From a virus (Duplodnaviria > Caudoviricetes): 64,000 bases of DNA. Positions 12,051 to 64,000 of the stretch are shown piece by piece. Each line of letters opens with the position of its first letter. Positions within the stretch are counted from its first letter, which is position 1. The stretch lies in the IMG/VR virus record IMGVR_UViG_3300033487_000003, positions 18,900 through 82,899 of that record; one strand, 5' to 3'. A model generated the notes under the pieces. It did no database searches. It saw nothing but the letters and a program-made list of their open reading frames with translations, and had not been told where the DNA came from. A program made the position numbers and the translations under genes.

Positions 12051-12054
12051 TGAG

Positions 12055-17506: not shown

Positions 17507-17522
17507 CCCGTAGGGAGAGCAG

Positions 17523-18454: not shown

Positions 18455-18669
18455 CCCTTTCCCTGAGCGACCACGGCCCGACGATTCCACGCGAGCAGAG
18501 CATGAACACAGCAATCGCACAAATTGGATGGATTGGAAAGACCGGAACCGTGTACCGACTCGACCAGCCACCCACGAGCAGTAGCGAACCGGGAGGTTTC
18601 GCACCGCTGCTGATCTCCGTCGGAACGTGGGAACACCTCGGAAACGAACATTGGGGTATCCATGACTGA
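18451..18669 (+). CDS. hypothetical protein
   Basis: Overlaps both neighbours at stop/start. Confidence 0.55.
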   Translation: MTLSLSDHGPTIPREQSMNTAIAQIGWIGKTGTVYRLDQPPTSSSEPGGFAPLLISVGTWEHLGNEHWGIHD

Positions 18670-19273
18670 CGTGACCATCCTGGTCGCCACCTACGGTGAT
18701 CAGGCATGGGAGCACCTCGCTCAGGTTCGTGCGATCCCATCGGCACAGGAGCAGGGTGTTCCGGTCATACACCGCCATGGCGCGACATTGCACGAGGCAC
18801 GTAACGCCTGCCTGCACGCGGCGCGAACCACGTGGGTCGTACACCTGGACGCCGACGACGAACTAGAAGACCACTACATCACCACCTTGATGAGCGGATC
18901 ATCCGACGTCCGTGCCCCATCAGTGCGCTACGTGCAGGGCAACTACGCCCAACCACCACGGGTCCCCACCGTCTACGGACATTCGCACACCTGTACGGCA
19001 GAGTGTTTGCCCTACGGGAACTGGATCATCGTCGGAGCGCTGGCACGCAGACAGCTGCTCATCGACATTGGTGGATGGCGTGACTTCAGCTGGTCGGAGG
19101 ACTGGGACCTCTGGTTACGTTGTCACCTCGCCGGCGGAAGTATCGAGACAATCCCACAAGCCATCTACCGCGCACACGTCCGACTCGCCTCCCGTAACCG
19201 GGCAGCCAGCCACGAGCAACGCCTGGCTGTGCACCGCGCGATCGCCCAAGCGAATGGAGTACCCATACCGTGA
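18662..19273 (+). CDS. glycosyltransferase family 2
   Basis: ARNACL, HLDADDEL, IGGW, EDWDLWLR. Confidence 0.9.
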   Translation: MTDVTILVATYGDQAWEHLAQVRAIPSAQEQGVPVIHRHGATLHEARNACLHAARTTWVVHLDADDELEDHYITTLMSGSSDVRAPSVRYVQGNYAQPPRVPTVYGHSHTCTAECLPYGNWIIVGALARRQLLIDIGGWRDFSWSEDWDLWLRCHLAGGSIETIPQAIYRAHVRLASRNRAASHEQRLAVHRAIAQANGVPIP

Positions 19274-44042: not shown

Positions 44043-44290
44043 TCAAAGGCGGCTGGAAGTCGATCGTGTTCCTCGGAGCCATCGGTGCCGTCCTGGGATG
44101 GGAGATTTTCGCGTCCTGGGACGGCGACGAGACTTCCTCACCGTTGACCGATCTGATAGTGACCTACGTACCGGCTGAGGTCACCACGGTGATACTGGGT
44201 GGGCTGATCGTATGGCTACCGGTACATTTCGCGATTCGGTACTACAGGAAGACCCGAAGACAGCGGGACGATGACGTGGGCGGATCGTGA
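44039..44290 (+). CDS. holin
   Basis: Two TM helices, basic C-terminus, GTGA-coupled to endolysin. Confidence 0.7.
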   Translation: MIKGGWKSIVFLGAIGAVLGWEIFASWDGDETSSPLTDLIVTYVPAEVTTVILGGLIVWLPVHFAIRYYRKTRRQRDDDVGGS

Positions 44291-44328
44291 TTCGTGATTT
44301 GTGAAGTTTGATCAATTTCATGGTGAGT

Positions 44329-44369
44329 ACAGTTCGAAGGTCCGGCATGGTGTCGGACCTTCGAACTGT
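44329..44369 (+). terminator. long hairpin after lysis cassette
   Basis: acagttcgaaggtccg/cggaccttcgaactgt. Confidence 0.7.
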
Positions 44370-44386
44370 CAGGGGAGAATGTGACC

Positions 44387-44653
44387 ATGGCAAAATTCTT
44401 CGAGCGATTCGAGGATCGGCATCCCTCCGTTACTGGCGTGCTCCGATTCCTGGAGTTCGAGCACCTCGGGAATCCTGCGGCCCACGCGCTGTCGCGTGAG
44501 TTCGCGCGACTGGCTGAGCTACTACTTGAGGTGCTTCCTGACGATCCGGAGCTGAGCGCGACACTTCGTAAGCTCCGCGAGGCCAAAGACTGTGCGGTTG
44601 GATTGGTGGCTGTGGTGGATAAGTCTCGGGTGGAGAAGGACAGCGATGCTTGA
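44387..44653 (+). CDS. small helical-hairpin protein
   Basis: FEHL...SREFARLA...PELSATLRKLREAKDCAV. Confidence 0.7.
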   Translation: MAKFFERFEDRHPSVTGVLRFLEFEHLGNPAAHALSREFARLAELLLEVLPDDPELSATLRKLREAKDCAVGLVAVVDKSRVEKDSDA

Positions 44654-45062
44654 TGATCTTGTTGTGTGGTTGAAATTCCAGCTGGCCAGGGAAGAAGCCA
44701 TGGCCAGGGATGCGGGAGACGGAGACGCCGGACGCTGGAATTTCGAGACTGATAGTGGTGGTGGATGTGCGCAGATACGCAATGGCGTTGGGGACGTCGT
44801 TGTGTATGGCGAGGGCAATGCGACTGATGAAGAAGCCGCCCATATCGCATATCATGATCCACTTTTTGTCAGCAGTGATATTTCGGCCAAAAGACGAATC
44901 ATCATCCGCTGTCTGGAGGTGATCGAGACGGCGAGTGACCATCACACCGTCGAGTCGTGTGACGAGGATGATGCAGTCCTCGCCGAGGCCGTGCTCCGGG
45001 CACTCGCGTCGGCCTACGCTGATCGTCCCGGATATCGCGAGAAGTGGAGGCCGTGGTGTTGA
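44646..45062 (+). CDS. DUF6221-like protein
   Basis: DDLVVWL..QL..EE..AR, HDPLFV..DISAKRRII, LASAYADRPGYREKW. Confidence 0.75.
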   Translation: MLDDLVVWLKFQLAREEAMARDAGDGDAGRWNFETDSGGGCAQIRNGVGDVVVYGEGNATDEEAAHIAYHDPLFVSSDISAKRRIIIRCLEVIETASDHHTVESCDEDDAVLAEAVLRALASAYADRPGYREKWRPWC

Positions 45063-45141
45063 TGACCTGGTGGTGGCGCCGTGGAGACGTACATAATGCT
45101 ACGCTTGGGGGTAGTTATATGGTACGTTACCCCGTTAAATC

Positions 45142-46332
45142 ATGGTGATGATGATGGATCTCGCTGCTCGTGATGTTTCGTTTTTGAGGCGTGAGCTGAT
45201 CGACTGGCTCGATCAGCAGGGGGTGGACTGGTTTCATACGATGATCTTGATGGGACGGCAACAGATCCGGCCTGAAGGTCCACCCCGTCAGGTTGCCGAG
45301 TTTCTAGCGGCGTATGAGCGTAAGCGTCTTTCCGATGCGGATCTGTGGTTTGTCGATGGAGACACCTGCGACCTGGTGAATGCCGCGCATGAGTCGATGC
45401 CGCCTTTCGCTCCTGTTCCCAGTGATCTACCGTCGAAGTCTGGATTCGCCTTGTTTCGGCGTCCGGTCATGATCCGGGATCCGATCAGCGATGCGCGTAT
45501 TAAGGAAATCATTACCCGGTTGTCGCTGTTTACCGCTCACGTTGACGAGGCTCGCGTCATCGAGCAGGTGCACTATTTATCTGTTATGTCTGATGAGTCT
45601 GTGTCGAGTGTGATCGCGTCGATGTCTGCTGTCGCTGGCGGTGGTGATTCTCTGAAAACCGAACAACTCCGACAGGAGATCAGCAGAATTTGCAACGCCG
45701 ATGTTCACGCGACACACGAGAAACTCCTGAAGCAGCATGTGAAGATCGTGGGCGTGTCGTGGTCGCCAGCTCTTGTCAGTAAGGATCCTAGGTTTCCCGT
45801 CGGAGGGGTGTGGATGTCGTTTTACGCGGCATCGAACCTGCCCGAGGTGATCTCTGATGAGGGGGTCCTGACTCGGTACCGAGATCTGGTTCCGACGTTG
45901 ATGATCGACAACGAGGCGGTTATCCCCTGGTATCCCGGTGAGGGGGAGCGCTCCCCGTTCCTACTGCCGATGGATACGGCGACCACCTGGGGATGGGCGC
46001 GGTTGGTGTTCGGGGCGTTCCGACTTGGTGCGCAGCGTGGTCTGTGCGAGCGGGTGTCGCAGCGTACGGAGCGCGCGGAACGTCGTCGGACCCAGCGGGC
46101 CCAGTTGCCACCGCGAGACGTGACCGTGGTGCGGTTGCGGCGGTCACACCAATCGGAGAAACCTGGAGTCGGGGAAAAAACGAAGCATAGGTATAGGTAT
46201 CCGGTGCGTGGCCATTGGAGGTCACAGTGGTATCCATCGGTCGAGGATCATCGGCCGATTTGGATTGATCAGCATCTTCGGGGGCCGGAGGGCACGGAGT
46301 TGCGGGGTGGTGAGCGCGTCACGGTAGTATGA
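45142..46332 (+). CDS. hypothetical phage protein
   Basis: C-terminal VRGHWRSQW..IWI..HLRGP motif. Confidence 0.7.
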   Translation: MVMMMDLAARDVSFLRRELIDWLDQQGVDWFHTMILMGRQQIRPEGPPRQVAEFLAAYERKRLSDADLWFVDGDTCDLVNAAHESMPPFAPVPSDLPSKSGFALFRRPVMIRDPISDARIKEIITRLSLFTAHVDEARVIEQVHYLSVMSDESVSSVIASMSAVAGGGDSLKTEQLRQEISRICNADVHATHEKLLKQHVKIVGVSWSPALVSKDPRFPVGGVWMSFYAASNLPEVISDEGVLTRYRDLVPTLMIDNEAVIPWYPGEGERSPFLLPMDTATTWGWARLVFGAFRLGAQRGLCERVSQRTERAERRRTQRAQLPPRDVTVVRLRRSHQSEKPGVGEKTKHRYRYPVRGHWRSQWYPSVEDHRPIWIDQHLRGPEGTELRGGERVTVV

Positions 46333-46343
46333 GATCTCCACCA

Positions 46344-46393
46344 CTGACAGAAAGAGGACCACCTGGGATTCCAGGTGGTCCTCTTTCTGTCAG
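46344..46393. terminator. 23-bp perfect inverted repeat, bidirectional terminator at junction of rightward and leftward blocks
   Basis: ctgacagaaagaggaccacctgg-gatt-ccaggtggtcctctttctgtcag. Confidence 0.85.
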
Positions 46394-46400
46394 GGGAATG

Positions 46401-46742
46401 TCAGATGAGCTGTAATTCCTGTGCTGGTGGGTTTCGATGTGTGACATAGGTCTGGTTGGTGACGGATCGATACACGATCCAGGTCACGGGGTGTTCGGGG
46501 ACGTAGACGTCTAGGTAGAGAAGTTTGGCATAATCGCGGGCTGCACGCTCCTGGTGATGGTCGCTACCGGGGAAGTTGCGGCCTTCGCGGATGGGGCGTC
46601 CCCAGAGGTCGAGCATGGTGACACGGTAGTAGGTGTCGGTTCGGATTATTGTGATCTTGATTCCTGGACTGATATCGGCGGTGATATGGTCACCGACGTT
46701 CATACGAGCCTTCGGATTGGCCTCTCGGTTCGTGTCTGGCAT
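46401..46742 (-). CDS. hypothetical protein (leaderless)
   Basis: TATGAT 6 nt before ATG. Confidence 0.6.
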   Translation of the reverse strand: MPDTNREANPKARMNVGDHITADISPGIKITIIRTDTYYRVTMLDLWGRPIREGRNFPGSDHHQERAARDYAKLLYLDVYVPEHPVTWIVYRSVTNQTYVTHRNPPAQELQLI

Positions 46743-46787
46743 CACACCATCATATACCCATGGGTGATGTTCGGGGTGGCGTGAATA

Positions 46788-47045
46788 TCACCCATTCCGT
46801 TCGTGGTGTCGCGAGATCCGACGATAGACCATTCCTACGGATACCCCAAGTAGCTGGGCAACTTCGTTATAGGTGTACTGGGTGGCGAGTTCGCTGGTAG
46901 CGGCATCAGCTTCCGCTACCAGCCAGCCCCGGACCTTCGTATCCGCTAACAGCGCGCCTACCTTGACGCGCCATTCTGGGGGAAGTGAGGTGATGCAGGC
47001 TTGTAGGGCTTCCAGGTCGCGTAGGTGTTCGGGAGGTATCTCCAT
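46788..47045 (-). CDS. HTH DNA-binding protein (leaderless)
   Basis: YTYNEVAQLLGVSVGMVYRRI; TATGGT 6 nt before ATG. Confidence 0.7.
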   Translation of the reverse strand: MEIPPEHLRDLEALQACITSLPPEWRVKVGALLADTKVRGWLVAEADAATSELATQYTYNEVAQLLGVSVGMVYRRISRHHERNG

Positions 47046-47162
47046 GGATCAACCATAATCCATGGGTAACGTCTGATGGCGGGGGGTACCGGACAGTCAA
47101 AGATGATCTATACACTGTGGCGAGGTGCCATCTGGTACTGGTCACGGATGGCACCTCATCTC

Positions 47163-47735
47163 TCACTGGTTGTAGTGCAGCTCTGCCTCTTTGAAGGCGA
47201 GGTGTACGGTGTGCATCGTCGCGTCCGGAAGATTTCTGGTAGGTCCGTAGATTTCGTTGATCTGGTAGCCAGACCAACCGGACTCGCGCCGAGTGCATCG
47301 GATCGCCTCGGCGATGATGACTCCATGGTCGGGGGAAACGTCGATCTGGTAGGGGTTGCCCTCGCCGATGACGAGGACCCAGTGTCCATAGTTCGGATGA
47401 CGCTCGACGCGTGGCGCGGTATGAATCGGCGCGGTTCCCTCGATGCGCAGGAACGGATTGTCACCGGGGCGACGAGCCTGGTAGTTACGGATTCCTGCTT
47501 GGCGTCCGTACCGAGTGAAGTAGATCTCGAAGCAGTATCCGTTTTCGGCTGTGCGGAAGTAGGCGATTCGACGGGTGCGTCGGGTGCATGTTCCGGTATC
47601 GGGGTTCGGGACGTAGGCAGTCTTGAGGGAATAGATTTTGAGGATTTCGCCAGTTGTGCCCGTATCGAGAATGAAAAGTCGATTATGGTCTTTGTCGTAG
47701 GCGGTGACGGTTACGTTTTCGATCTTGGTTGGCAC
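47163..47735 (-). CDS. hypothetical protein
   Basis: GAGGAG RBS before GTG 47735. Confidence 0.7.
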   Translation of the reverse strand: MPTKIENVTVTAYDKDHNRLFILDTGTTGEILKIYSLKTAYVPNPDTGTCTRRTRRIAYFRTAENGYCFEIYFTRYGRQAGIRNYQARRPGDNPFLRIEGTAPIHTAPRVERHPNYGHWVLVIGEGNPYQIDVSPDHGVIIAEAIRCTRRESGWSGYQINEIYGPTRNLPDATMHTVHLAFKEAELHYNQ

Positions 47736-47771
47736 TGGTACTCCTCGTGAAGTAGGTGGTTCCAACCACAC

Positions 47772-47818
47772 AATAGTACGTCCCCCCGTAGGTTTCCACA
47801 ACGGGGGGACGTAGAAAT
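47772..47818. promoter_or_regulatory. palindromic promoter/operator
   Basis: TACGTCCCCCCGT..ACGGGGGGACGTA; - strand TTGTGG-N17-TACTAT. Confidence 0.75.
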
Positions 47819-47822
47819 CTGA

Positions 47823-48254
47823 TCAGACTGGGTCAGTCTGGCTGATGTCGAACACGTATGCCATCCGGAACATCTGCCGGACCTCTGTTTTCTTGCCCTG
47901 CTTGCCCTGCTCGCCCTGCTCGCCCTGCGGAGAGGTGTCCTTCGCGGCGGATCCGGAAATCTCGTACCTTCCGGCCGGAGCAAGGATCTGAATCCCGTGT
48001 TCTCCCTTGCGGACCCTACGTCCCTCGTCTTTCCAGCCGTGGATGCCTCGGACGATGGTCGCTTCTGGCATTTGCATGACGATCAGGAGGGCGTTACGTG
48101 CGCTGTAGTGGTCGAACCTAGCCGCGTATACCCCCCGCTGGGTTTCGTCAAGGGAGTCCGCGAAGGTCGTGTATCGCTCGGCCAGTGCTGCGACCTTTGC
48201 CGCGCGCTCTTCCATCGTGGTGGTACGGCGGGTACGGGTGGTGGTTTTGGCCAT
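47823..48254 (-). CDS. ArdC-like N-terminal ssDNA-binding domain protein
   Basis: YSARNALLI..Q.P.AT.V.G...W...GR.VRKGE.GIQILAP, VFDISQT. Confidence 0.8.
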   Translation of the reverse strand: MAKTTTRTRRTTTMEERAAKVAALAERYTTFADSLDETQRGVYAARFDHYSARNALLIVMQMPEATIVRGIHGWKDEGRRVRKGEHGIQILAPAGRYEISGSAAKDTSPQGEQGEQGKQGKKTEVRQMFRMAYVFDISQTDPV

Positions 48255-48293
48255 GGTGTCCTCCGACTTGGGCGGATTGGTTCCGACCATCTA

Positions 48294-48339
48294 ATCATAC
48301 GTCCTACCGTAGGATGTTGGCAACGGGGGAGCGTAGGAT
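48294..48339. promoter_or_regulatory. bidirectional palindromic promoter/operator
   Basis: - strand TTGCCA-N18-TATGAT; + strand TAGGAT-N18-TAGGAT-N5-GTG. Confidence 0.7.
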
Positions 48340-48344
48340 CACGG

Positions 48345-48488
48345 GTGTCAGACGAGGAATACGTGAAATATCAACTACTGTCCGATGCGGTGATTGTGAA
48401 CAACTCTGACCGCCGTATCCTGGAGGTGGTTCCTGCCTGGAATCGCCGCGTGATCAGCAGCACGTACATCAGCAAGCCCCCGTCTTGA
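48345..48488 (+). CDS. 47-aa leaderless small protein
   Basis: MSDEEYVKYQLLSDAVIVNNSDRR...; between promoter and terminator. Confidence 0.45.
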   Translation: MSDEEYVKYQLLSDAVIVNNSDRRILEVVPAWNRRVISSTYISKPPS

Positions 48489-48504
48489 AACCAAGACGGG
48501 GGCT
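48475..48504. terminator. hairpin
   Basis: 13-bp stem agcccccgtcttg/caagacgggggct. Confidence 0.75.
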
Positions 48505-48516
48505 CGTTATGTCTGA

Positions 48517-49302
48517 TCAGATTTTCAGACTTTCACGGATATTCTTCACCGTTTCTGGAGTAAGAAATTTCTTATTTCCGATTCGACAACTGGAATACTC
48601 GTAGGTACTAATTGCTTCAGCCACGACGTCAGCGTCGTATCCTTCTCTGACTAGTTCAATGGTCAGAGACTTTTCGGTTGGATATTTCATCCACTGGTTT
48701 CTAACTTGTGCGATGATGGACTTGTAGTCGATCTTGGCTGCCAGTTGGCTGTCGAGATTATCTTCTCGACTTACTACCACGACGTGTGGCATCGCTTTCG
48801 TTTCTTTGTCGTCAAGGTTAGCAAGCCACGTACCCGGAGTTCCATCACTGTCGAGCGTGAGAACTACAGCGTAGTTCCCTTCTTTAGTCTGGAGATCTGT
48901 GATTGCGTGTGCGGTTTCGTTGACGATCAGATCACTCCATGGGGTAGTTCCCAGCCACAAGGTAATTCCCTCGCGGATGGCCGCAGACCGAGTAATTCCA
49001 GCGCGTTTGGCGGTTTCGGTGAGGATAGACAAAATTGCTGGGTCTACGGTGAGCATGATTCTCACGGAATGTGATCCGTCGGCAAGGGAAGGACGTCCAT
49101 TACTGGTACGGCTGACACGATACTTGATGCCATCTACCAAGATCGCATCTTCGTCGTAATGGCCTGCCTCTTCGAGAGTCTTGATGGATTCCTCATGGAT
49201 CCTCAGGGAGCGTCCCGTGATCTTGGATTCCACTCCGTGAGTACGGATCAGTCTGGCCACGTGGCTGGCCTGGTCAGTGCTGTCGAACGTAACGATTAGC
49301 AT
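48517..49302 (-). CDS. protein with internal ribbon-helix-helix (CopG-like) motif
   Basis: VRIMLTVDPAILSILTETAKRAGITRSAAIREGI; AAGGAG RBS. Confidence 0.65.
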   Translation of the reverse strand: MLIVTFDSTDQASHVARLIRTHGVESKITGRSLRIHEESIKTLEEAGHYDEDAILVDGIKYRVSRTSNGRPSLADGSHSVRIMLTVDPAILSILTETAKRAGITRSAAIREGITLWLGTTPWSDLIVNETAHAITDLQTKEGNYAVVLTLDSDGTPGTWLANLDDKETKAMPHVVVVSREDNLDSQLAAKIDYKSIIAQVRNQWMKYPTEKSLTIELVREGYDADVVAEAISTYEYSSCRIGNKKFLTPETVKNIRESLKI

Positions 49303-49312
49303 CTTGCTCCTT

Positions 49313-49360
49313 CATGGGTTTCTGATATCACAAGTCTACCATGGATTTCTGATATCACAA
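49313..49360 (-). promoter_or_regulatory. two 21-bp direct repeats flanking a TAGACT -10, candidate operator
   Basis: catgg(g/a)tttctgatatcacaa at 49313 and 49340. Confidence 0.6.
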
Positions 49361-49410
49361 ATTATTACTGTCATCTGATCGAGTGCCATACTCGCCACTA
49401 CCAAAAGAGC

Positions 49411-49442
49411 CAGCCCTCCACTACGACAGCAGTGGAGGGCTG
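49411..49442. terminator. hairpin
   Basis: 12-bp stem cagccctccact/agtggagggctg. Confidence 0.7.
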
Positions 49443-49454
49443 TTGGCACGACCA

Positions 49455-50420
49455 TCAATTCTTATCAATCTTACCAATGACCTGCACTCGGGTATGAGAC
49501 AATCCCGCGCGATCTCCGATCGCGCGGGTGCTGTCACCCCACGACAGCTGTCGCACGATGAGCTCATCCCTACGGATAGTCAGGGTGGCCAGCTGATCTC
49601 CCACCGTGTCAAGCTCTTCCCGAAGCTCGTCCCGAAGCTCTTCTCGAAGCGTATGGAAGTACTCCTTGGCTCCGGTGAGAACTACGTTATCGTTAAGAGC
49701 ATCGCGTACCTCGATTGCGACCAGCTGGTCCAGCTGGTCGTCAGTGGTGTCTGCGGTAATGTCCAGATGCGCGATCGCACTCGGATCTCCCTGTACATAC
49801 CACTCGTCCGCTGGATACGTTTTCAGCAGTTCGTCAAAGTCATCGTACGTTTTGATTACTTCGTTGATTTCATATGCCGCATCTATCGCTTCCGTAGTTA
49901 TCTGATGTCCGCGATGGGTTTCGCCGTCCCAGTAGATCTCTGAGCCGTCGAGGATCAGCTGGGCGATCGGTGCGACCTCGTCAAGCAGAGCGTTTGCCGC
50001 GTCCGCTGTGAGGCAGGGTACCTCCCAGCATAGAATTCGCCCATCGGCCACTCCTCGTGGCATGTTGTCTCCGATCGGGTCACAGAAGATGGTGAGATCA
50101 CCATCTGATAAGTACAGGTGCATACGGATGCGCTGTTCGTTCACCCGACGTGGATCACGACAGTGGAGTTCGTCCACCTCGTTGATGTATCTTTTGTTTA
50201 CTGGGATGATGTGAGTATCCGGGGTGATGTGCGTATCCGGGGTGATTGCTTCCAGGTCGGCGATGAGCTGATCGAGGTCGGTCAGCTCATCGCCCGTGCT
50301 CGCTTCGCGTGCGTTTCTGGCAGCGACGAGAATACCAGCGGGGGTATCCAGATAAGGAAAGTATTGTACGACCGTCGGATCGAGTTCGATGAGTCGATCT
50401 CTGTAGACGTCGAGTGTCAT
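49455..50420 (-). CDS. hypothetical protein with C-terminal HTH
   Basis: RRDELIVRQLSWGDSTRAIGDRAGLSHTRVQVI. Confidence 0.7.
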   Translation of the reverse strand: MTLDVYRDRLIELDPTVVQYFPYLDTPAGILVAARNAREASTGDELTDLDQLIADLEAITPDTHITPDTHIIPVNKRYINEVDELHCRDPRRVNEQRIRMHLYLSDGDLTIFCDPIGDNMPRGVADGRILCWEVPCLTADAANALLDEVAPIAQLILDGSEIYWDGETHRGHQITTEAIDAAYEINEVIKTYDDFDELLKTYPADEWYVQGDPSAIAHLDITADTTDDQLDQLVAIEVRDALNDNVVLTGAKEYFHTLREELRDELREELDTVGDQLATLTIRRDELIVRQLSWGDSTRAIGDRAGLSHTRVQVIGKIDKN

Positions 50421-50645
50421 GACGCTCCCTGGTAGGTTGGAAACAATGTTACCACAGAAGCTCCACTGCTGTCATCTTTGTTTCCAGTAGATCAGTTGAT
50501 CTCTTTGACCATCAGATATTGATCATGTACCATCACAGTGGTTTTGCTCCGTGCGCGAAACCTTTCCCCGCGTTAGCGGGGATGACGACACATTGGCCCC
50601 CAGCTCCTGATCGAGCTGGGGGCCAATGTGGATATATGTGGATCA

Positions 50646-50930
50646 TCACATGGAGACTGGATTTTCCAAAAGCCATCGCTCCCAGGCAGCAAGTGGCTCG
50701 ACCCTGGCAGCCGCGATCATCCGCTGGTGCTCGTCGATCCGCTCTTGCGCCTCCACCTGACGAATACGCACCGCGAAACGCACAGAAGCGGCAGCCGCAT
50801 CAACCTGCCAGGCTGCGTCTTCCCGCCAGTCTGGTCGGGAGCGGTGCATACGCAGGATCCTGGCCGCCGCGAGAGCACGATAGGCATTGAGTTTACAGGT
50901 GTCGATCATCGCCTCGCGGTCTTTCATCAC
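50646..50930 (-). CDS. hypothetical protein
   Basis: AGGGG RBS. Confidence 0.6.
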   Translation of the reverse strand: MMKDREAMIDTCKLNAYRALAAARILRMHRSRPDWREDAAWQVDAAAASVRFAVRIRQVEAQERIDEHQRMIAAARVEPLAAWERWLLENPVSM

Positions 50931-50983
50931 TTTCCCCTGTCCGTGTCTGTGGTAGTGAATCTTCAGTTCTCTTCCTACCGAAT

Positions 50984-51020
50984 AACGTACTCCCCCCGTT
51001 GATGGAAGTCAACGGGGGCC
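50984..51020 (-). promoter_or_regulatory. palindromic promoter/operator
   Basis: CCCCCG-TTGACT-N17(..ACGGGGGGAG)-TACGTT. Confidence 0.75.
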
Positions 51021-51063
51021 CGTTAAATTGGTATCGGTAAGGTGGTCACCCGGTTGACTCCGG

Positions 51064-51558
51064 TCACACCCCATGGCCCAGCCGAGCCCGACGTACCGTG
51101 CTGGTCGGGTTTTTCTTTCCGGCCGTGGTTCTATAACCACGGTCATCGATAAGGATCTCGAACCCCCCATAGCGGGGATCATCTACGGTCCAGAGGCACC
51201 CCTGGGGGCAGGACAGCGTCTGTGACGACCGTTCGCCAGATCCACGCTCATCGCGGACCTGACGTTCCAGATACTTCAGGGAATCCGTGGTGAGACGGTC
51301 GCCGACCTTGAGGTTGGCGAGGATCCTCTGGGTCGCCACGGCGTCCCGCTCCATGGCCCATGCCAGCCTGTTGAGGGCTACCGTACTTGCTCGGTACGCC
51401 GTCCTGTCGATGCTTTCCCGCCGAAGCAGGGCAGTGATCACTCTGCTGATGATCTCGATCGTGACGGTGGCCGGGTCGATATGGCGAGCGAGATCCGCCG
51501 CGTACTCGCTCTCCAGGGCTGACTTCGCCTCGTCCACCAGTGTTGCGATGTCTGACAT
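51064..51558 (-). CDS. hypothetical protein
   Basis: AGGAAGG RBS. Confidence 0.65.
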   Translation of the reverse strand: MSDIATLVDEAKSALESEYAADLARHIDPATVTIEIISRVITALLRRESIDRTAYRASTVALNRLAWAMERDAVATQRILANLKVGDRLTTDSLKYLERQVRDERGSGERSSQTLSCPQGCLWTVDDPRYGGFEILIDDRGYRTTAGKKNPTSTVRRARLGHGV

Positions 51559-51654
51559 TTTTCCTTCCTAGGTTCGTCCCCATCCGGGGCAGTGAGTGGG
51601 TGCCCGGGGCGATGTTCTCCGTGGCGGCGTGGGTACCGCGCACCCCAGAGTGGG

Positions 51655-52077
51655 TCAGCTGCGCCAGCTGACGATCCACTCTCCGCAATCCTCCGCGAGC
51701 ACCTCACGCGGGTCCCCTCCGTCCGCGTCAATCGCCAGACCAGCGGCACGGAATGCCGAGATCAGAGCTTCAGCCTGGTTTGAGCGCTCCATTTCCAGGT
51801 CGTTTCGCCAGGCGATTTCGTGTTCTGTCCGCTCTTGGTGCGCGGCGGGGGAGTCGTCGTAGTCCGGATCGTCGGGGTCGCCCACGAAGTCGGGGGGCAT
51901 CGGCCATCCGGGCAGGGAGACCGTGACTCGGATTGGATCGTCTGTACGGGGCCAGGACTGTGCCGTTTTCTGGGTTGGGGTGCGGCTGATTCGGGTCTCG
52001 ATCTTCACCCCGTACGTGGCGGCGGCGGCCCGGATGGTGTGGAGAAGTTTCTTGGTGGGTGATGCGGTGGTAGACAT
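51655..52077 (-). CDS. hypothetical protein
   Basis: AAGGAG RBS before ATG 52077. Confidence 0.65.
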   Translation of the reverse strand: MSTTASPTKKLLHTIRAAAATYGVKIETRISRTPTQKTAQSWPRTDDPIRVTVSLPGWPMPPDFVGDPDDPDYDDSPAAHQERTEHEIAWRNDLEMERSNQAEALISAFRAAGLAIDADGGDPREVLAEDCGEWIVSWRS

Positions 52078-52122
52078 CGTTCTCCTTGTTGGTTCTGGTG
52101 GGTGGAGTGACCCACTCACCAA

Positions 52123-52164
52123 ACAATACGTCCCCCCGTTGGTTTTGTCCAACGGAGGGACGTC
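52123..52164 (-). promoter_or_regulatory. palindromic promoter/operator
   Basis: CGTCCCTCCG-TTGGAC-N18(..ACGGGGGGACG)-TATTGT. Confidence 0.75.
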
Positions 52165-52180
52165 GAAATTTGTTAGGTGA

Positions 52181-52600
52181 TCATCCCATCTTCTTGATCT
52201 TCTCTTCCGCCAGATCGATAGCGTCACGCAATGCCGCTATCGATCCATATCCAGCGTTGTCTGCCTGGACCATCCGAGACACTAGATCAGCAAGAAGACT
52301 TCCGTGACGATCAGCGAGGGACAGTAGCTCCACGATCATCGCGGCAGCCCCATCGGGCCCAAAAAGGTAGCCGACCTGTACCTGACGGGTCGTTTTGTTG
52401 ACCCGTCCCTGAAGCGTCATGTAAATAGCCTGACCAGCTAATTTACCAGCGATGACCTGGTCGACGGTGCACACGTCGATCCCATTCAGGAGGACACAGC
52501 CGGTAGTGTCGATAATGAACGCCCCCCGATCGTGTGGTCCACCAGGACCTGAGATGCTACCGCCGAGACGGATTGGGTCGATATTTTCCGAAGTGCTCAC
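52181..52600 (-). CDS. hypothetical protein
   Basis: AAAGG RBS. Confidence 0.6.
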   Translation of the reverse strand: MSTSENIDPIRLGGSISGPGGPHDRGAFIIDTTGCVLLNGIDVCTVDQVIAGKLAGQAIYMTLQGRVNKTTRQVQVGYLFGPDGAAAMIVELLSLADRHGSLLADLVSRMVQADNAGYGSIAALRDAIDLAEEKIKKMG

Positions 52601-52640
52601 TGTTGTTACCTTTCACTCGAAAGTGGTACGTGCTGTCTTC

Positions 52641-52988
52641 TCAGCGTGCCAGTAGGGCCACGACTGCTATAGCCACCATCACGGCCACGGCTACCTTGCC
52701 TCGCCGCGACTTTGGGTGATAGCTGGTCGGAGGATTCCACCACCAGGCCGCCACCAGGACGACGGCGAGAGCGGCCAGAATGCCTCCGACTACCCACGGC
52801 ATCCAGTCGACCCCGATGTCGGACAGGATCGCCGGCATGTGGTCCAGGAGGGCCGCGATTGCTCCGATGACGACCACGATGAGGATCGTCGGCGCGAGTT
52901 TCCAGGCCATCTCGAATGCGACGATCCACTTCCACCAGCGATTGCCGAACGTCGTCCACGCTGCGCTACGTGCCTTGTTCCACCCCAT
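52641..52988 (-). CDS. membrane protein, possibly Spd-like
   Basis: Three hydrophobic helices; directly downstream of traA-like gene. Confidence 0.55.
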   Translation of the reverse strand: MGWNKARSAAWTTFGNRWWKWIVAFEMAWKLAPTILIVVVIGAIAALLDHMPAILSDIGVDWMPWVVGGILAALAVVLVAAWWWNPPTSYHPKSRRGKVAVAVMVAIAVVALLAR

Positions 52989-53000
52989 CCGAGGTCTCTC

Positions 53001-53360
53001 CTACTTGTCTGGGTCAAAGCCACGGGAGGTCTCCTGTGGGCGGTTGAGGAACAGGGCGGTGTACTGCGTATAGGAGCGGGTGATGGCCTTCGCTGCCTCG
53101 TCTTCAAGGGCTGCGGCGTGGAGAAGGTTCCGGACGACCTTCCTGGCTGCGAGGCGTACGTCTACTCCCATGAGACCTCTACGTCCCCTGATCTTGCAGA
53201 GGCCGCGATACAACTCAGCCGCCATGACCACCAGCTGGTCGTGCATGGCGTGGTGATGAGCGCGCGCCTTGTCCGCCATTTTGTGGAACTCAGTCGTGGT
53301 GTACGGGGTCACCAGGGACGGATGTCCGCGAGTCGAATCAGACTGGGATGGGGTGCTCAT
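53001..53360 (-). CDS. TraA-like plasmid transfer protein
   Basis: ARKVVRNLLHAAALEDEAAKAITRSY..Y resembles the small TraA proteins found beside traB on actinomycete plasmids. Confidence 0.55.
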   Translation of the reverse strand: MSTPSQSDSTRGHPSLVTPYTTTEFHKMADKARAHHHAMHDQLVVMAAELYRGLCKIRGRRGLMGVDVRLAARKVVRNLLHAAALEDEAAKAITRSYTQYTALFLNRPQETSRGFDPDK

Positions 53361-53391
53361 GTGTCAGACCTCATTTTCGTTACTGTGGGTA

Positions 53392-53525
53392 GTCGTCAGA
53401 GGGGTGTCAGGAGGGTGTCAGAGGGGTGTCAGGAGGGTGTCAGGAGGGGTGTCAGGAGGGGTGTCAGGAGGAATTTCCCTATAGGGGAGAGCGCCTCTCT
53501 GACACCTGACACGTCAGACCTGACA
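53392..53525. repeat. clt-like array: six GGGTGTCAG copies at 11-12 bp period plus inverted CTGACAC copies
   Basis: Copies start at 53402, 53413, 53424, 53435, 53447, 53459; inverted copies at 53499, 53506, 53520; immediately 3' of traB. Confidence 0.85.
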
Positions 53526-53528
53526 TTA

Positions 53529-55664
53529 TTACGCACTGTTACCAGTTTGGTGGATGGTGGCAGAGCGCGTCAGCCGGTACTCGCCGACCTTTCCGGTACG
53601 CGACAGGGTCAGTCCTGGGAAGGACCTATCTCCGTCCACGAGTTCGGTGAGCTGTTCGGAGAACCATGGTCGGGAGCGGAACTTGTACCGGTCGACGAGC
53701 AGCGCGACCTGGAACGTCACCCCCGTGTCGTCTCCATCCCGAAGGGTCTCGTCGTTCGCTATCTCGTTGAGTGCTCGCTCGAATGCCTTGAGAGCGTCTT
53801 CCCTGGTGGGGGCGAATTTCTTGTCGTCACCCCACGACAGGTCGTCTGCCGGGGGGGCTGCGATGGGCTGGGATGGGTCGATCATGTCGGCTTCTGGGTC
53901 GATCTGTGCGGGGATAGCGCCAGTTTTGCGCATTTCGTTCACGTCCTCCTTCATCTGTTTGATTACCATTTCGGCATCTTCGGCATCTTCGGAATCTTTT
54001 GTGTCCTCTGGTACGGATTTCGGAGTCGAAGTGGTGACCGTTATGTCCTGTTCGGATACCCATCGGGCACGGAGCCGCTGCGTGGTCTCGGCCGCGTCCG
54101 TGTACCAGTCTCCGAGGGCATTGATCGATCCCTGGTCGAGGGGCGTCAGGTGGGGAGCCCATCGACTGATGTGGGTCTCCATCTGCTCATCGCTGGCCAG
54201 GAACGCCTTACGGACCACTGGCCAGCGATCCTCGGGGATACCGATTCCCTCTGTGTAGTGGTATCCGGGCTTGGACTGCTTCCAGTTCTCGGGGTGTGCC
54301 CCGGCGTCGATCGTCGCGTCGGACAACGCGAACGACGCCGAGTACGAGTCACCGCACCCGAAGCACGACCAGGTGCCGATGTTGAACCGCAGCGCGGTTG
54401 GCATCCCCTCAGCACTGGCGCGTTGCAGCGAGAACCCGCACACCACTCCCGCTGACAAGCCCTTGGACGCGAGGAAAACCATCTCCCCGGCGGCGGTGTC
54501 GCACAGCTCGTCGCATTCTTCGAAGTGCGCGTACAGCAGCCCCATCAACAGCCGGGGGTCCTCAGCACACCTCGGTTCCCACGTCCGGTATCCGCACTCG
54601 CCCAGTCGGTCAGCGCGCCATCTCACCAGCTTGCACAGAGCTTTCATGCCAAATCGGAACACCCTCGGGTCGTCGCTGGCCACGATGATGCCCAGTCCGT
54701 CCCGCAGTGGCCTAACCGTCTGGGCGCCCTTGACGGTGTCGAACCACATCGGGGGTGCCACGTGCCGACGGCTGACGATTTCTAGCAGGCTGATTTGGGC
54801 TTCCATGGTCTTTCCGGTGCGGGTCATGCCCATCCACCCCCGCGACGAGGGGTTCGGGGCTTCCGGGTGCCCTCCGGCGAGGTAGATCTTCGCGAGTTCC
54901 TGATCCTCGTACATGCCGGTGACCAGGGGTTCTGTGATGGACGCGCCCGGAGCTGACGGTCCGGGGTAGGTGATGGCGCCCTGTAACACGTCTTTCGTGA
55001 CGATCGTCAGCATTGATGTTCCAGCGTTCTCACCGGGTACAACGCGGGAACGTCCCCGAGGTGCGTTCGCGAGGGACTCGATAGCCGGTACGGCGGCCTG
55101 GACCACGGAGACGGTTTCTCCGCCGGTGTGCCTGACGGGCACCTCGATCCGGGTCACATCGCCTTGTTGGTCGACAAACTGCTTGGGCTTGCCGAATCGG
55201 GTGTTTTCCAGCCCGAGTTTCCTGGTCAGCGGGTCCTCCGCAGTCTCACTGTCTCCGCTCTGACGTAAGCTGTCCAGCCGGTACAGGCACCACGATCCGG
55301 CTAGGAAAAGTCCGATGAGGATGAACGTCACCATCCACCACCCGATGGCACCCACGGCGACGGTTATGGCCTCGCCGAGTCCAGCGAGCACGATGCTGAC
55401 GGTGAGGTGCCAGCGGATCAGGGCACGCCGTCCAGCGGCCACGTGGTAGGACAGGTGGGCCAGTAGGGCTGTTCCGGCGACGATCCCGCCGGTGGTGATG
55501 GCAAGTCCGGTGGGTTTGTCCTTGACGATGGTGTGGACGATCACTCCGGCGAGGAGTGCCCCGGGGACGGTGAGGGCTAGGCCAGCGAATGGCAACGTCC
55601 GGTCGGCGAGCTTGCGGTTACGGCCATCGGTTTTGCTGGTGGTCGCCGTGGCTGTGCGGCCCAC
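53529..55664 (-). CDS. traB: TraB-type FtsK/SpoIIIE conjugative dsDNA translocase
   Basis: N-terminal TM helices, Walker A GMTRTGKT, Walker B AHFEE, LQRAS..GMPT..RFN.G...CFG, C-terminal winged helix RSRPWFSEQL; strong RBS. Confidence 0.85.
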   Translation of the reverse strand: MGRTATATTSKTDGRNRKLADRTLPFAGLALTVPGALLAGVIVHTIVKDKPTGLAITTGGIVAGTALLAHLSYHVAAGRRALIRWHLTVSIVLAGLGEAITVAVGAIGWWMVTFILIGLFLAGSWCLYRLDSLRQSGDSETAEDPLTRKLGLENTRFGKPKQFVDQQGDVTRIEVPVRHTGGETVSVVQAAVPAIESLANAPRGRSRVVPGENAGTSMLTIVTKDVLQGAITYPGPSAPGASITEPLVTGMYEDQELAKIYLAGGHPEAPNPSSRGWMGMTRTGKTMEAQISLLEIVSRRHVAPPMWFDTVKGAQTVRPLRDGLGIIVASDDPRVFRFGMKALCKLVRWRADRLGECGYRTWEPRCAEDPRLLMGLLYAHFEECDELCDTAAGEMVFLASKGLSAGVVCGFSLQRASAEGMPTALRFNIGTWSCFGCGDSYSASFALSDATIDAGAHPENWKQSKPGYHYTEGIGIPEDRWPVVRKAFLASDEQMETHISRWAPHLTPLDQGSINALGDWYTDAAETTQRLRARWVSEQDITVTTSTPKSVPEDTKDSEDAEDAEMVIKQMKEDVNEMRKTGAIPAQIDPEADMIDPSQPIAAPPADDLSWGDDKKFAPTREDALKAFERALNEIANDETLRDGDDTGVTFQVALLVDRYKFRSRPWFSEQLTELVDGDRSFPGLTLSRTGKVGEYRLTRSATIHQTGNSA

Positions 55665-55692
55665 GGGGCACTCCTTCCTTTCAGTGCGGGGG

Positions 55693-55821
55693 TCAGATGC
55701 TGGCTAGGCCGTTGCCGATGAGGTATGCGGCGATGAGTATGGCGAGGTAGGTGAGTATTCCGAGGATCGATGTGACAATATGGAATAATTTGGACAAATT
55801 AACAGTAGGCTTTTGGATCAT
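55693..55821 (-). CDS. 42-aa single-TM peptide (Spd79-like by size and position)
   Basis: Hand-translated MIQKPTVNLSKLFHIVTSILGILTYLAILIAAYLIGNGLASI; between spd-like gene and traB. Confidence 0.55.
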   Translation of the reverse strand: MIQKPTVNLSKLFHIVTSILGILTYLAILIAAYLIGNGLASI

Positions 55822-55845
55822 GGTTTTCTCGATTCCCCTTGTGGA

Positions 55846-57171
55846 TCAGTCCTCGTTTTGCTGGACGTACACGAGCAGCAAGCGTCGGATCTTGTTTCCG
55901 GTGGACGAACTTGAGTAGCCGAGTACCGCAGCAAGCTCGCGCGCGGATGGGAAGTTCGTTCGCCATCCGGGCCGTTCGTTGTCGAGTCGTTCGATCAGCT
56001 TCGGATCGATCGAGTCCTGTACGCCGTTCGCACGAACGTCGTTCGGTGTGCGGCGTGCGCGAACGGGACGAACGAGGTCGTCCAGCATTGGCCGTACGAA
56101 CACGTGGTGTTCGCTGGGGTCGGTGTTCGCGGTTAGTTCGTTCGCCAGATGTTCGTGGTCAGTTCGTTCGTTCGACGTCGTCGTGGTGTTCGTGTCGGTG
56201 CTGGCGTTCGGGGTGCTCGCCCGTGCGATCGCCGGTTGCTCGTTCGCCAGCTGTTTGGTTTCCCGTTCGGTGTTCGACGTCGTGGTGTTCGCCTCGGCGA
56301 GGGTGTTCGAGGTGTTCGGACGTGCGATGACCAGGTTCAGATCGTCAAGCCTGGGAGCGTCCTTCCAGGGCTTGGCGCGGGTCACGTACTCGTCGAACAA
56401 CCCGATCAGGTAGGCGGTGGTCGCGCATCCGATCGGACCGATTGCGTGGGGAAGGGCGGTGACGATGCCGCGCCAGTCGCTCCAAGAGGTGCCAATCGGC
56501 CAGCCACCGATGATGTTCAGGGCGAGGCTGAGACCGATGGCGGTCCATTCGATACAGGTCGCGCGCCAGTCGGTTCCACCGCCCGAGGAACGCAGCACAG
56601 CCCGCCCGATGATGATCATCGCAACGATAGTGATGATCGCGGGTTCCACGCCCCAGGAGGCGACCCAGGCAAACGACCCGCTGGTCAGGTTGAGGACGCG
56701 GACGACGCCGTCCTGCACGCCGGAGGTCGACCAGGCCGCGAAGGCGAGCAGAACCGGGATGCCGACGAGCATGGTGACCTTGTGGACCGAGGCGACGCGG
56801 AGCGCGCGCATCTCAGCTGAGCCCTGGATCTGTGCCCTGATGTAGGCGCGGGTACCGGATTCGGTGGCTCGGCGGTAGAGGTCGGCGAGGGACACCGCGT
56901 CGCGGGCGTCGCGGTAGCGTTCGCGACGCGAACGTTTGGCGTTCGCTACGCGTTCGGCGAGGTCAGCCAGGGCGATTTCGTGTTCGGCTTTGTGTTCGCG
57001 GGTGGCTAGCTGATGGTCGTCGCGAACGCGCGACCTGGCGAGTACGTTCGCCAGCTTTGCGCGGAGACGTTCGATCGCGAGCCGTTCGGTGTCCTTGGAG
57101 CGACCGAACGTGCGGCCGTTCGCGGACATCGGGGTGTTCGCGGTTTCGGTGGTGTTCGTTCGTTCGGTCAT
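55846..57171 (-). CDS. SpdB/DUF2637-like plasmid spread membrane protein
   Basis: Coiled coil, four TM helices, low-complexity T/N linker, C-terminal HTH (PSARELAAVLGYSSSSTG); leaderless start 57171. Confidence 0.7.
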   Translation of the reverse strand: MTERTNTTETANTPMSANGRTFGRSKDTERLAIERLRAKLANVLARSRVRDDHQLATREHKAEHEIALADLAERVANAKRSRRERYRDARDAVSLADLYRRATESGTRAYIRAQIQGSAEMRALRVASVHKVTMLVGIPVLLAFAAWSTSGVQDGVVRVLNLTSGSFAWVASWGVEPAIITIVAMIIIGRAVLRSSGGGTDWRATCIEWTAIGLSLALNIIGGWPIGTSWSDWRGIVTALPHAIGPIGCATTAYLIGLFDEYVTRAKPWKDAPRLDDLNLVIARPNTSNTLAEANTTTSNTERETKQLANEQPAIARASTPNASTDTNTTTTSNERTDHEHLANELTANTDPSEHHVFVRPMLDDLVRPVRARRTPNDVRANGVQDSIDPKLIERLDNERPGWRTNFPSARELAAVLGYSSSSTGNKIRRLLLVYVQQNED

Positions 57172-57207
57172 GCCCACATGATACACAGTCTCGACAGTTT
57201 CGACAGT
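57172..57207 (-). promoter_or_regulatory. leaderless promoter of transfer operon with 9-bp direct repeats
   Basis: CTGTCG-N17-TATCAT-N6-ATG; actgtcgaa/actgtcgag/actgtg repeats. Confidence 0.6.
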
Positions 57208-57311
57208 GGGAGTCATGATGGTGCTGTACATCAACTCGTGCGACGATCGTGTATACACAGCGTCGACAGCCTGACGGGAGTACGACCGTGACCAGGGGGC
57301 AAGGGAATGAC

Positions 57312-57740
57312 GTGACGTGGACTCAGGACAGGATCAGCCTGATACAGCGGGCACTGGATGGCCCATGGATCAAACCCGGCATGGCGGCCGGAGCGCTCGG
57401 GGTACACCGGGCGACTGTGCACAACTACATGGCTGATGGGCGGCTGACCTGCGCTCATCTGAGTGGAAGTCGACTACGGTCGGTGGCATCGATCGATGTA
57501 CTGCGATTGGTGCTAGAGGAAATCGACAAAGATGAGCAGATAGGTTGTGACATGGGTCACTGTTCGCGAACGTTCGCCGCACGCGTGCGCCACGTGGTGA
57601 CCGAACACGACGCCCGGATGATTTCCGCGCGAGCACCGAACGGTTCTTGGATGTGCGATCAGCCGAACGACGAACACCGAACGACGAACGACGAACAAAC
57701 GAACGACGAACAAACGAACGACGACTTCGGAAGGGAGTGA
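57312..57740 (+). CDS. HTH (Xis/MerR-like) DNA-binding protein divergent from transfer operon
   Basis: WIKPGMAAGALGVHRATVHNYMADGRL; start could be 57249. Confidence 0.65.
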   Translation: MTWTQDRISLIQRALDGPWIKPGMAAGALGVHRATVHNYMADGRLTCAHLSGSRLRSVASIDVLRLVLEEIDKDEQIGCDMGHCSRTFAARVRHVVTEHDARMISARAPNGSWMCDQPNDEHRTTNDEQTNDEQTNDDFGRE

Positions 57741-57773
57741 CCCAAGGGATCTGGCTAAGACTGACGAACACGC

Positions 57774-57809
57774 GAACGGCGCCCCAGGGAAGACCCAGGG
57801 GCGCCGTTC
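57774..57809. terminator. hairpin between convergent genes
   Basis: 12-bp stem gaacggcgcccc/ggggcgccgttc. Confidence 0.7.
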
Positions 57810-57817
57810 GTTGATGG

Positions 57818-59769: not shown

Positions 59770-60372
<603 letters not shown>

Positions 60373-60495
60373 TCTTCTACCTCTCCGAGGGGGACGGGGT
60401 AACTCTGACGAAAATGAGGTTACCATAGCGAGCCTAAATCGCGGAAGTAGGTTACACTAGGTGTGTTGAGTTCCCCCGCGTAAGGACAAAGTGTC

Positions 60496-63564: not shown

Positions 63565-63810
63565 GTGGATCTCCATCGCGTCACCACCGGTGCCAGAGAA
63601 CACGAGATTCCATCCACGTACGTGCTGCCGTGGCTACGCGGATACCTCGCGTGCCTGGGAAGAGACGATGACAGCTCTCAGCTGGCAGCGCGGATCATTC
63701 CCCAGATCACCCCGCTAGACGGAGAGTCCTTCCATCAGACGTGCTATAGGGCACTGAAGGTATGCCATGATCAGGGCATTATCGTCTATCGAGGTATCCG
63801 GCGGGAGTAG
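63565..63810 (+). CDS. hypothetical protein
   Basis: GTG just after upstream stop. Confidence 0.45.
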   Translation: MDLHRVTTGAREHEIPSTYVLPWLRGYLACLGRDDDSSQLAARIIPQITPLDGESFHQTCYRALKVCHDQGIIVYRGIRRE

Positions 63811-63812
63811 CC

Positions 63813-64000
63813 ATGGCCATCACAGCCCAGAGTGGTACGGCGTCGAACTACATGACGCTCACACATCGAGGGGGCCCCACCATGCCGAGCCGAGCACACA
63901 CCGTAGCTGTCATCTTGGGTGTCCTCGCTATCGTCCTGGTGGTGGGATCTGCTATCGCTGGGATAGTAGATCTTCGACACCTGGCAGTCGCCATGGTCTC
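63813..64000 (+). CDS. membrane protein (partial, runs off window end)
   Basis: GGGAG RBS; VAVILGVLAIVLVVGSAIAGIV. Confidence 0.45.
   Translation, partial: MAITAQSGTASNYMTLTHRGGPTMPSRAHTVAVILGVLAIVLVVGSAIAGIVDLRHLAVAMV

Follow-up and report, generated by a model that had tools for sequence, protein, structure and literature searches.

The transfer region of pWTY27 (PMC3583192; NC_013667), a 14-kb theta plasmid with RepAB, encodes a membrane-anchored FtsK-like translocase of the TraB type (named TraA there), which footprints a clt site that starts inside the 3' end of its gene and is composed of four TGACACC direct repeats plus inverted repeats (PMC3583192). In this plasmid, a small traA precedes the translocase gene, a four-helix membrane protein of the DUF2637 type is encoded upstream in the same operon, and a divergent gene encodes a GntR regulator; the same study also subjected the system to deletion and mating tests. 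A comparable protein organization was described for TraB of pSVH1, in which an N-terminal membrane part and a translocase domain are followed by a winged helix whose helix alpha-3 reads 8-bp repeats, the TraB recognition sequence (TRS), according to the account of Vogelmann 2011 given in PMC4447253 and PMC3583192. TraB-type transfer loci have also been found together with tailed-phage virion genes on single replicons, namely circular Streptomyces plasmids of ~85-90 kb. [quoted passage not shown] Here, we analysed a stretch of 64,000 nucleotides (hereafter, the window) that comprises bases 18900-82899 of the 82,899-bp IMG/VR virus record IMGVR_UViG_3300033487_000003, in which a leftward gene block encoding a TraB-type translocase, a clt-like repeat site and SpdB2-like and TraA-like proteins lies in a tailed-phage genome. 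Coordinates are window positions unless given as record positions.

The 711-aa product of 53529-55664 (-) was identified as TraB, a plasmid-type FtsK-like double-stranded DNA (dsDNA) translocase, from family matches, fold and motifs. Residues 19-701 matched positions 2-635 of the 639 positions of NCBIfam NF041214 (plasmid_TraB) with an E value of 1.4e-91 and 307.9 bits; this was the sole NCBIfam match at E<=1, and there was no FtsK model among the NCBIfam matches. By tblastn, the protein showed 26-29% identity to traB genes annotated on plasmids of Streptomyces, Nonomuraea and Amycolatopsis, with alignments that covered 80-98% of its length. The best plasmid match was pCQ3 TraB (27.8% identity, 97% coverage), and identity to the pWTY27 translocase was 26%. 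Judged by these sequence comparisons, the phage TraB groups with plasmid TraB rather than with chromosomal FtsK, as the first-pass annotation of this DNA, made from the letters alone, had supposed. The closest homologues (P0004-P0033) were 45-60% identical. An AlphaFold model built on 21 homologues (mean pLDDT 81) predicted four N-terminal transmembrane (TM) helices at residues 19-135, a motor domain at 150-540 and a C-terminal winged helix at 621-700, which runs helix-strand-helix-helix-strand-strand with a predicted recognition helix at 666-677. Note that the winged helix was read from the topology of the model, not from a separate fold search. When the model was submitted to Foldseek, FtsK motor domains came first (E ~1e-14, TM score by target 0.67-0.69), followed by the conjugation coupling protein TcpA and EccC/EssC. 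In addition, the Walker A motif GMTRTGKT (residues 278-286), an acidic Walker B stretch and an SLQR motif were invariant in the alignment of 21 TraB homologues. The predicted FtsK-like TraB with TM helices, GMTRTGKT and a C-terminal winged helix was thus recovered by the full-length NF041214 match, the model and Foldseek. Cultured phages such as Bacillus SPO1-like phages and Streptomyces phage Gilgamesh (gp10) also encode an FtsK-type ATPase domain; unlike the phage TraB, however, these FtsK/SpoIIIE-like proteins align with only 31-44% of a plasmid TraB. Megablast and tblastn searches of 50,697 GenBank phage records gave no full-length TraB-type match.

Directly 3' of traB, the 168-bp spacer behind the gene carries a clt-like repeat site (53361-53512, -), within which a tandem array at 53395-53471 has a period of 11-12 and 6.8 copies (Tandem Repeats Finder score 126). 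Nine of the 14 CTGACAC sites in the window fall within these 152 bp, seven of them direct on the gene strand and two inverted. Since the CTGACAC count over the whole window equals chance, the signal is the clustering, and no second CTGACAC cluster was found in the full 82.9-kb genome. Along the gene strand, two inverted CTGACAC copies are followed by the core CCCCTATAGGG and then by six direct CTGACAC(C) copies phased at 11-12 bp, while a seventh direct copy stands further downstream and abuts the start of the TraA-like gene. We located the clt repeats in the pWTY27 record, and the phage array has the same core, TGACACC, at the same place relative to the gene, with seven direct and two inverted copies as against four repeat copies in the plasmid. 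The recognition motif of pSVH1 is GACCCGGA, which differs from the phage CTGACAC, and, unlike the phage gene, pCQ3 traB has no clear repeat array behind it.

A YTATAGGG core was also conserved between the inverted and direct copies in seven loci, regardless of the repeat motif (53470-53500 here, and the matching place in L002-L007). Its variants were CTATAGGG, GTATAGGG, TTATAGGG and CTATGGGG, the pWTY27 counterpart being CCCCTAGG; it may act as a bend, a nucleation site or a promoter of the next gene. On pWTY27 (L034), a gene annotated 'phage major capsid protein' is found at 10642-12102, just downstream of traB and clt.

Among the 11 other traB loci, eight have a dense repeat array of their own directly behind the gene. 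The motif was TGACACC or CTGACGC in L002, L003, L004, L007 and pWTY27, TGCGCAC in L008, TTCGCGA in L006 and CAGATAC in L005, and the TGACACC recognition core was common to the phage, pWTY27 and the bacterial loci L007 and L051. When the C-terminal domains were aligned, the predicted recognition helix began with SRPW in all seven TGACAC/CTGACGC loci, including pWTY27, and with SRTW, SVSW or KYSW in the three loci with other repeat motifs. In these ten loci, the repeat motif varies in step with the residues that open the predicted recognition helix, as would be expected of a cognate protein-site pair, and this supports such a pairing. The ten motif/recognition-helix pairs would constitute a natural specificity series.

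The 82.9-kb genome is that of a tailed phage: the record encodes a large terminase (TerL), a portal, a portal/protease-like protein, a major capsid protein and a 1202-aa tape measure, together with a small terminase and an exonuclease. CheckV gave a completeness of 93% and the IMG/VR class is 'linear', despite a direct terminal repeat of 254 bp (record 1-254 and window 63747-64000, equal to record 82646-82899) in which 253 of 254 letters are identical. The repeat closes the genome, through assembly overlap or true terminal redundancy, so that it is effectively complete, and no host flanks were seen. The module and the capsid genes lie on one contig, which the first-pass annotation had asked to be confirmed. 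An identical TraB with a near-full-length copy of P0002, the SpdB2-like protein of the block, was present on a second contig of 83,043 bp, and the stretch was detected in four metagenomes from wetlands, all belonging to one study. An independent 11.7-kb Logan contig from the probable source run spans 44100 to 55473 (inside traB) and crosses the left junction; short contigs from two further samples cover the module and its flanks alike at 99-100% identity and similar low depth. Note that this assembly check used Logan contigs, and that the source-run contigs leave parts of 55.5-64 kb uncovered. In run X2, apparent skips from 52698 to 56698 and from 53711 to 56878 were considered as deletion variants and rejected, given only 21-22 letters on the shorter side, extra letters between and a depth of ~2; they were treated as other organisms or repeats.

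The composition of the block was also that of the phage. The GC content of the module was 0.62, and traB, with GC 0.63 and a third-position GC (GC3) of 0.765, was within one standard deviation of the phage genes (GC 0.60 +/- 0.03, GC3 0.70 +/- 0.07), whereas its homologues from bacteria and from other phages range over GC 0.68-0.72 and GC3 0.89-0.92, those from bacteria alone having GC 0.70-0.72 and GC3 0.91. A composition that is phage-like, and not like that of the ~70% GC bacterial relatives, indicates long residence in a 60% GC genome. No att-like direct repeats flanking the block were found. The module is part of the phage genome, not a foreign insert, and the suspicion of a chimera, or of an inserted actinomycete integrative and conjugative element (AICE) bounded by att ends of its own, was not borne out.

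We then compared phages with and without the module. A single-sequence TraB search of IMG/VR viral contigs gave no match, and a TraB profile search gave five contigs, four of which are complete genomes of 57-71 kb, three with terminal repeats. These four phages (G001-G004, carrying loci L002, L003, L004 and L006) have GC contents of 68-71%, and each encodes a TraB homologue of 26-36% identity with a motif-specific repeat array behind it, followed by a TraA-like gene in G001-G003. A homologue of the TerL of the phage under study (G000) was present in three of the TraB-bearing phages (~31% identity), and beyond that and the tape measure little is shared. G004 has a tyrosine integrase and the different repeat TTCGCGA, and no integrase, resolvase or ParA domain was found in G001-G003 (ParB not tested there). 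On the other hand, none of ten capsid relatives tested (43-59% identity) gave a TraB match, and seven of the ten are at least 96% complete. The closest of them, G406 and G407, share 34-38 of the 110 genes of G000, comprising the complete virion module and some of the genes to the right of the block, and nothing between 47.8 and 57.8 kb. L108 (IMGVR_UViG_638275411_000001, 58,638 bp) encodes a capsid protein of 43% identity and gave no TraB match. The G000 TraB was 54% identical to the copy of Rhizomonospora bruguierae, nearer than to the other phage copies at 26-36%, which points to exchange with cellular elements. The closest bacterial TraB copies lie on contigs G005:C56 and G249:C12, which have nothing in common with the phages but TraB, the TraA-like gene and a small TM gene; these contigs were considered as lysogens, rejected because they have no virion genes, and read as plasmid or AICE copies.

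All the parts that the first-pass annotation had listed, from the SpdB-like protein and the 42-aa TM peptide through TraB, the array and the TraA-like gene to a second membrane protein and a divergent helix-turn-helix (HTH) gene, are in place, and all open reading frames (ORFs) of the module are unbroken. The SpdB2-like membrane protein P0002 (55846-57258, -), whose gene lies upstream of traB, is a 470-aa ORF, for which the database gene call starts at ATG 57231 (461 aa). Its model has a long N-terminal helix (55-150, pLDDT >90) running into four TM helices (155-294), then a disordered T/N-rich linker and a confident three-helix HTH at 419-469. SpdB2, of the SpdB3-Spd79-SpdB2 set of pSVH1, has an N-terminal coiled coil, four TM helices and a C-terminal domain, and binds DNA (PMC4447253). 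P0002 is SpdB2-like by predicted architecture and by position only; no sequence similarity to Streptomyces SpdB2/DUF2637 proteins was detected. A homologue (34.6% identity) occurs in an operon with an FtsK-type translocase on the Actinomadura plasmid pAGRA3207_1, and homologues at 55-68% identity are common in Micromonospora, Catellatospora, Verrucosispora, Actinoplanes and relatives. In Micromonosporaceae genomes these homologues do not adjoin this TraB type. A DUF2637 label for P0002 relatives appears only in automatic cluster names of the Atlas (score 0.87).

The 119-aa TraA-like protein (53001-53360, -) was named from its position after traB and the array and from family matches of limited score. 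The gene is kept directly after traB and the array in phage loci L002-L004 and bacterial loci L007 and L008. The window protein matched NF041213 (plasmid_TraA) at E 0.0018 with 18.4 bits against a cut-off of 80, four of six orthologues matched the same family (best E 5.9e-7, all below the cut-off), and hhalign of the TraA-like profile against pWTY27 TraA gave E 2.8e-4 and a probability of 41%. We read it, from these profiles, as a distant TraA relative, which would stand after traB in the phage, as opposed to before it in pWTY27. Two small membrane proteins accompany these genes. A 42-aa single-TM peptide (55693-55821, -) lies between P0002 and traB, and a 115-aa protein with three TM helices (52641-52988, -) is a candidate Spd-type partner by its helices and relative place; a 3-TM protein occupies the equivalent place in L002, L004 and L007, with a weak match to the L007 protein.

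The leftward operon occupies 52.1-57.8 kb. After the 3-TM gene comes a 139-aa ORF (52181-52600, -), possibly in the same transcription unit, and it is the last gene before a terminator-like hairpin (52128-52163, -) with 15 pairs and then a T-rich tail, the candidate left end to which the unit probably reaches. A 34-nt repeat family (62-79% alike) at 47762-47795, 48283-48316 and 52112-52145 overlaps terminator- or promoter-like hairpins between leftward genes, and as one copy ends the TraB unit, the block is tied into the phage's own regulatory punctuation. The right boundary is marked by a GC-rich hairpin (57773-57810) with 17-nt arms that are 94% complementary, located between the divergent HTH gene and a conserved phage gene (57818-58183, -); the capsid relative G407 keeps a homologue of the latter and nothing to its left. 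The divergent regulator candidate (57288-57740, +; ~150 aa) was listed from GTG 57249, the more likely start being 57288 or 57312. It resembles a Xis/MerR-type HTH_17 domain below the Pfam cut-off (E 0.012, 16.3 bits) and ends in an acidic repeat tail; the pWTY27 regulator, by contrast, is of the GntR type. Short tandem repeats of the CGAACGA type encode this tail (57664-57724) and the T/N-rich low-complexity linker of P0002 (56127-56330). A putative divergent control region (57181-57287) overlaps the 5' end of the long P0002 ORF and contains a perfect 10-bp palindrome, GTGTATACAC, at 57249-57258 as a candidate operator, three half-sites of the ATACACAG..TCGACAG type among the repeated half-sites nearby, and one sigma-70-like promoter match (57191-57219, +).

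The named relatives of TraB, P0002 and the capsid protein all point to Micromonosporaceae, which indicates a mycelial host, as had been proposed. Specifically, TraB has relatives in Rhizomonospora and Dactylosporangium, and capsid homologues occur in 14 of 401 Micromonosporaceae genomes; the host is probably a member of this filamentous, spore-forming family. Among the 401 genomes there was no close lysogen, capsid identity did not exceed 42%, and TraB and capsid matches never occurred together. Whole-record Pfam searches gave no match to tyrosine integrase PF00589, serine recombinase/resolvase PF00239, ParA PF13614 (AAA_31) or ParB PF02195, other ParA models and Rep families not being searched. 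The plasmid-like prophage pictured in the first-pass annotation therefore found no support in these searches, and this sets the phage apart from pZL12, for which, as for pSLE1, ParA/ParB and replication loci are reported in PMC4487206. It also differs from an AICE, with no PF00589 or PF00239 match on the record and no att-like repeats around the block. The Micromonospora 'plasmid' CP108834, considered as a further candidate, is phage-like with an integrase and was rejected, as no TraB was annotated within the 50 kb read.

The idea that SpdB2 homologues aid the spread of phage DNA, in the case of phages phiC31 and VWB, was put forward by Thoma et al. 2015 (PMC4447253). Together with the pZL12 transfer locus and the pCQ3 traA-traB beside capsid genes, this proposal removes the earlier impression that a phage with TraB is without precedent, and a tailed phage with a TraB-type transfer locus is already known as a kind. 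To our knowledge, phiC31 and VWB have no TraB. As in pZL12 and pCQ3, tailed-phage virion genes (here TerL, portal, capsid and tape measure) and the transfer locus share one replicon; in contrast to these Streptomyces plasmids, the phage probably has a Micromonosporaceae host, and pCQ3 was not among the plasmid records matched by its capsid protein. It differs likewise from pWTY27 in being an 82.9-kb tailed phage. Particular to this phage are a host that is probably one of the Micromonosporaceae, a lack of recognisable functions for lysogeny or plasmid life, the core in common with a footprinted clt, and the series of helix/motif covariation.

Given these results, we consider it rather probable that the block is a working transfer module for dsDNA of the Streptomyces-plasmid type that acts on the phage's own genome, allowing virion-independent transfer between hyphal compartments; the phage genome may thus also spread without virus particles. 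We observed the parts of the module, that they are intact and conserved in phages, and that the repeat motif corresponds to the recognition helix. From these we infer that TraB binds the repeats and pumps DNA, with the phage genome as cargo. In such a mechanism, TraB would be anchored in the membrane by its four N-terminal helices and form an FtsK-like ring, its winged helix would dock on the phased CTGACAC(C) repeats (clt) behind its own gene, and the ATPase would pump unprocessed double-stranded phage DNA across septal cross-walls and where hyphae are in contact. Channel and spreading functions would fall to the SpdB2-like four-helix protein, together with the TraA-like protein and the small membrane proteins, and the divergent HTH protein would probably control the operon via the palindrome in the shared control region. 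As to the substrate, we tentatively prefer the genome as it replicates, or persists in a carrier state, while infection is under way. A plasmid prophage of the pZL12 kind, stably maintained by a replicon that escaped recognition, seems unlikely, and we place it behind the former because no integrase, resolvase, ParA or ParB domain was found. The more specific proposal, that a phage without lysogeny functions pumps its replicating dsDNA genome through septal cross-walls or hyphal contacts during infection via TraB, clt and Spd proteins, is doubtful. If true, a bacterial virus would be moving from cell to cell without virions, similar in logic to plant-virus movement via plasmodesmata, in which receptors would be bypassed and each infection centre in the mycelium enlarged. 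For mobile DNA, conjugation and transfer by viruses are usually regarded as alternatives, and a 2025 review of plasmid mobility compares the two (PMC12282955). The phage described here is complete, apparently has neither plasmid nor integration functions, and retains a full dsDNA transfer system that relies on a single protein and has a predictable recognition site. Taken with the four other complete IMG/VR phages, it suggests that phages of filamentous actinomycetes may regularly use virion-independent spread, which would then not be a peculiarity of pZL12. This bears on phage propagation in mycelia divided into compartments and on the flow of genes among actinomycetes that produce antibiotics.

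Several results weigh against a working module of this type. The TraB score lies below the NF041214 equivalog cut-off of 800 bits, so that by sequence the protein is a distant subfamily of plasmid TraB and not an equivalog. FtsK_SpoIIIE was not matched at E<=0.01 and there was no Pfam match; Pfam and PDB sequence searches left TraB unnamed, the names coming only from NCBIfam and phrog_24831. The first-pass annotation had proposed family searches for TraB/FtsK, DUF2637 and TraA, which confirmed TraB but not DUF2637: PF10935 matched neither P0002 nor its 21 homologues at E<=0.1, and hhalign against the pWTY27 DUF2637 protein gave a probability of 1.3%, so P0002 was rejected as a DUF2637 protein. 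The assignments of the TraA-like and HTH proteins are weak, in this capsid lineage the module is an accessory, mosaic element, and the helix/motif covariation rests on about four independent groups. Moreover, most of the 110 ORFs called on the genome, including most of those scanned, have no family or assigned function, so that lysogeny, repressor, replicon or plasmid genes could be hidden among them.

Other explanations have to be set against these observations. The module could be functional for other DNA, by mobilising host or plasmid DNA, by competing with or excluding plasmids and AICEs that use TGACACC, or by loading spore compartments. Cross-talk with resident elements is conceivable because the recognition core is common to pWTY27, L007 and L051. 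Phages with a related capsid manage without the module, and FtsK/SpoIIIE-like proteins of unassigned role do occur in the Bacillus phages and Gilgamesh. We nevertheless regard such a role as distinctly improbable, since the sole dense array of the genome lies directly behind the phage traB, which makes the phage the obvious cargo, and since the whole plasmid gene order is kept, beyond the motor alone. A little less probable again is an inert passenger, that is, a block captured from an AICE or plasmid by recombination and carried unused. Its accessory distribution in the capsid lineage would fit capture, as would the cellular exchange indicated by the Rhizomonospora copy, whereas intact ORFs, invariant catalytic motifs, near-perfect and phased repeat copies and a composition fully adapted to a 60% GC phage speak against disuse. 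The TraB-plus-array arrangement moreover persists in four other complete and very different phages. It is very improbable that the contig is an assembly chimera, or a prophage into which a separate AICE was inserted together with att ends of its own. Although the record is a metagenome assembly labelled 'linear' and was checked through contigs rather than raw reads, the terminal repeat closes the genome without host flanks, the same TraB and P0002 recur on the 83,043-bp contig, the Logan contig crosses the left junction, two further samples cover module and flanks at similar depth, neither an integrase nor an att-like flanking repeat was found, and the GC content of the block is phage-like. 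Transfer of the phage's own genome thus remains the reading that we prefer.

Some neighbouring genes were also recorded. A 7-deazaguanine set comprises QueC-like, QueE-like and GTP cyclohydrolase genes at window 5874-8439 and two tandem TGT/DpdA-like genes just upstream of the window, at record 16968-18742 (L012), and given these genes the phage DNA is probably modified. Such modification, if present, would also shield TraB-moved dsDNA from restriction. The product of 47823-48290 (-) carries the N-terminal domain of ArdC, an anti-restriction family typical of conjugative plasmids (Pfam E 1.4e-9). Right of the block, a GGDEF diguanylate-cyclase-like gene (59770-60426, -; Pfam E 1.5e-25) contains a perfect 21-bp tandem duplication at 59857-59898, and its homologues are found in the capsid relatives G406 and G407 and also beside a P0002 homologue in a Micromonosporaceae genome (L023/L024).

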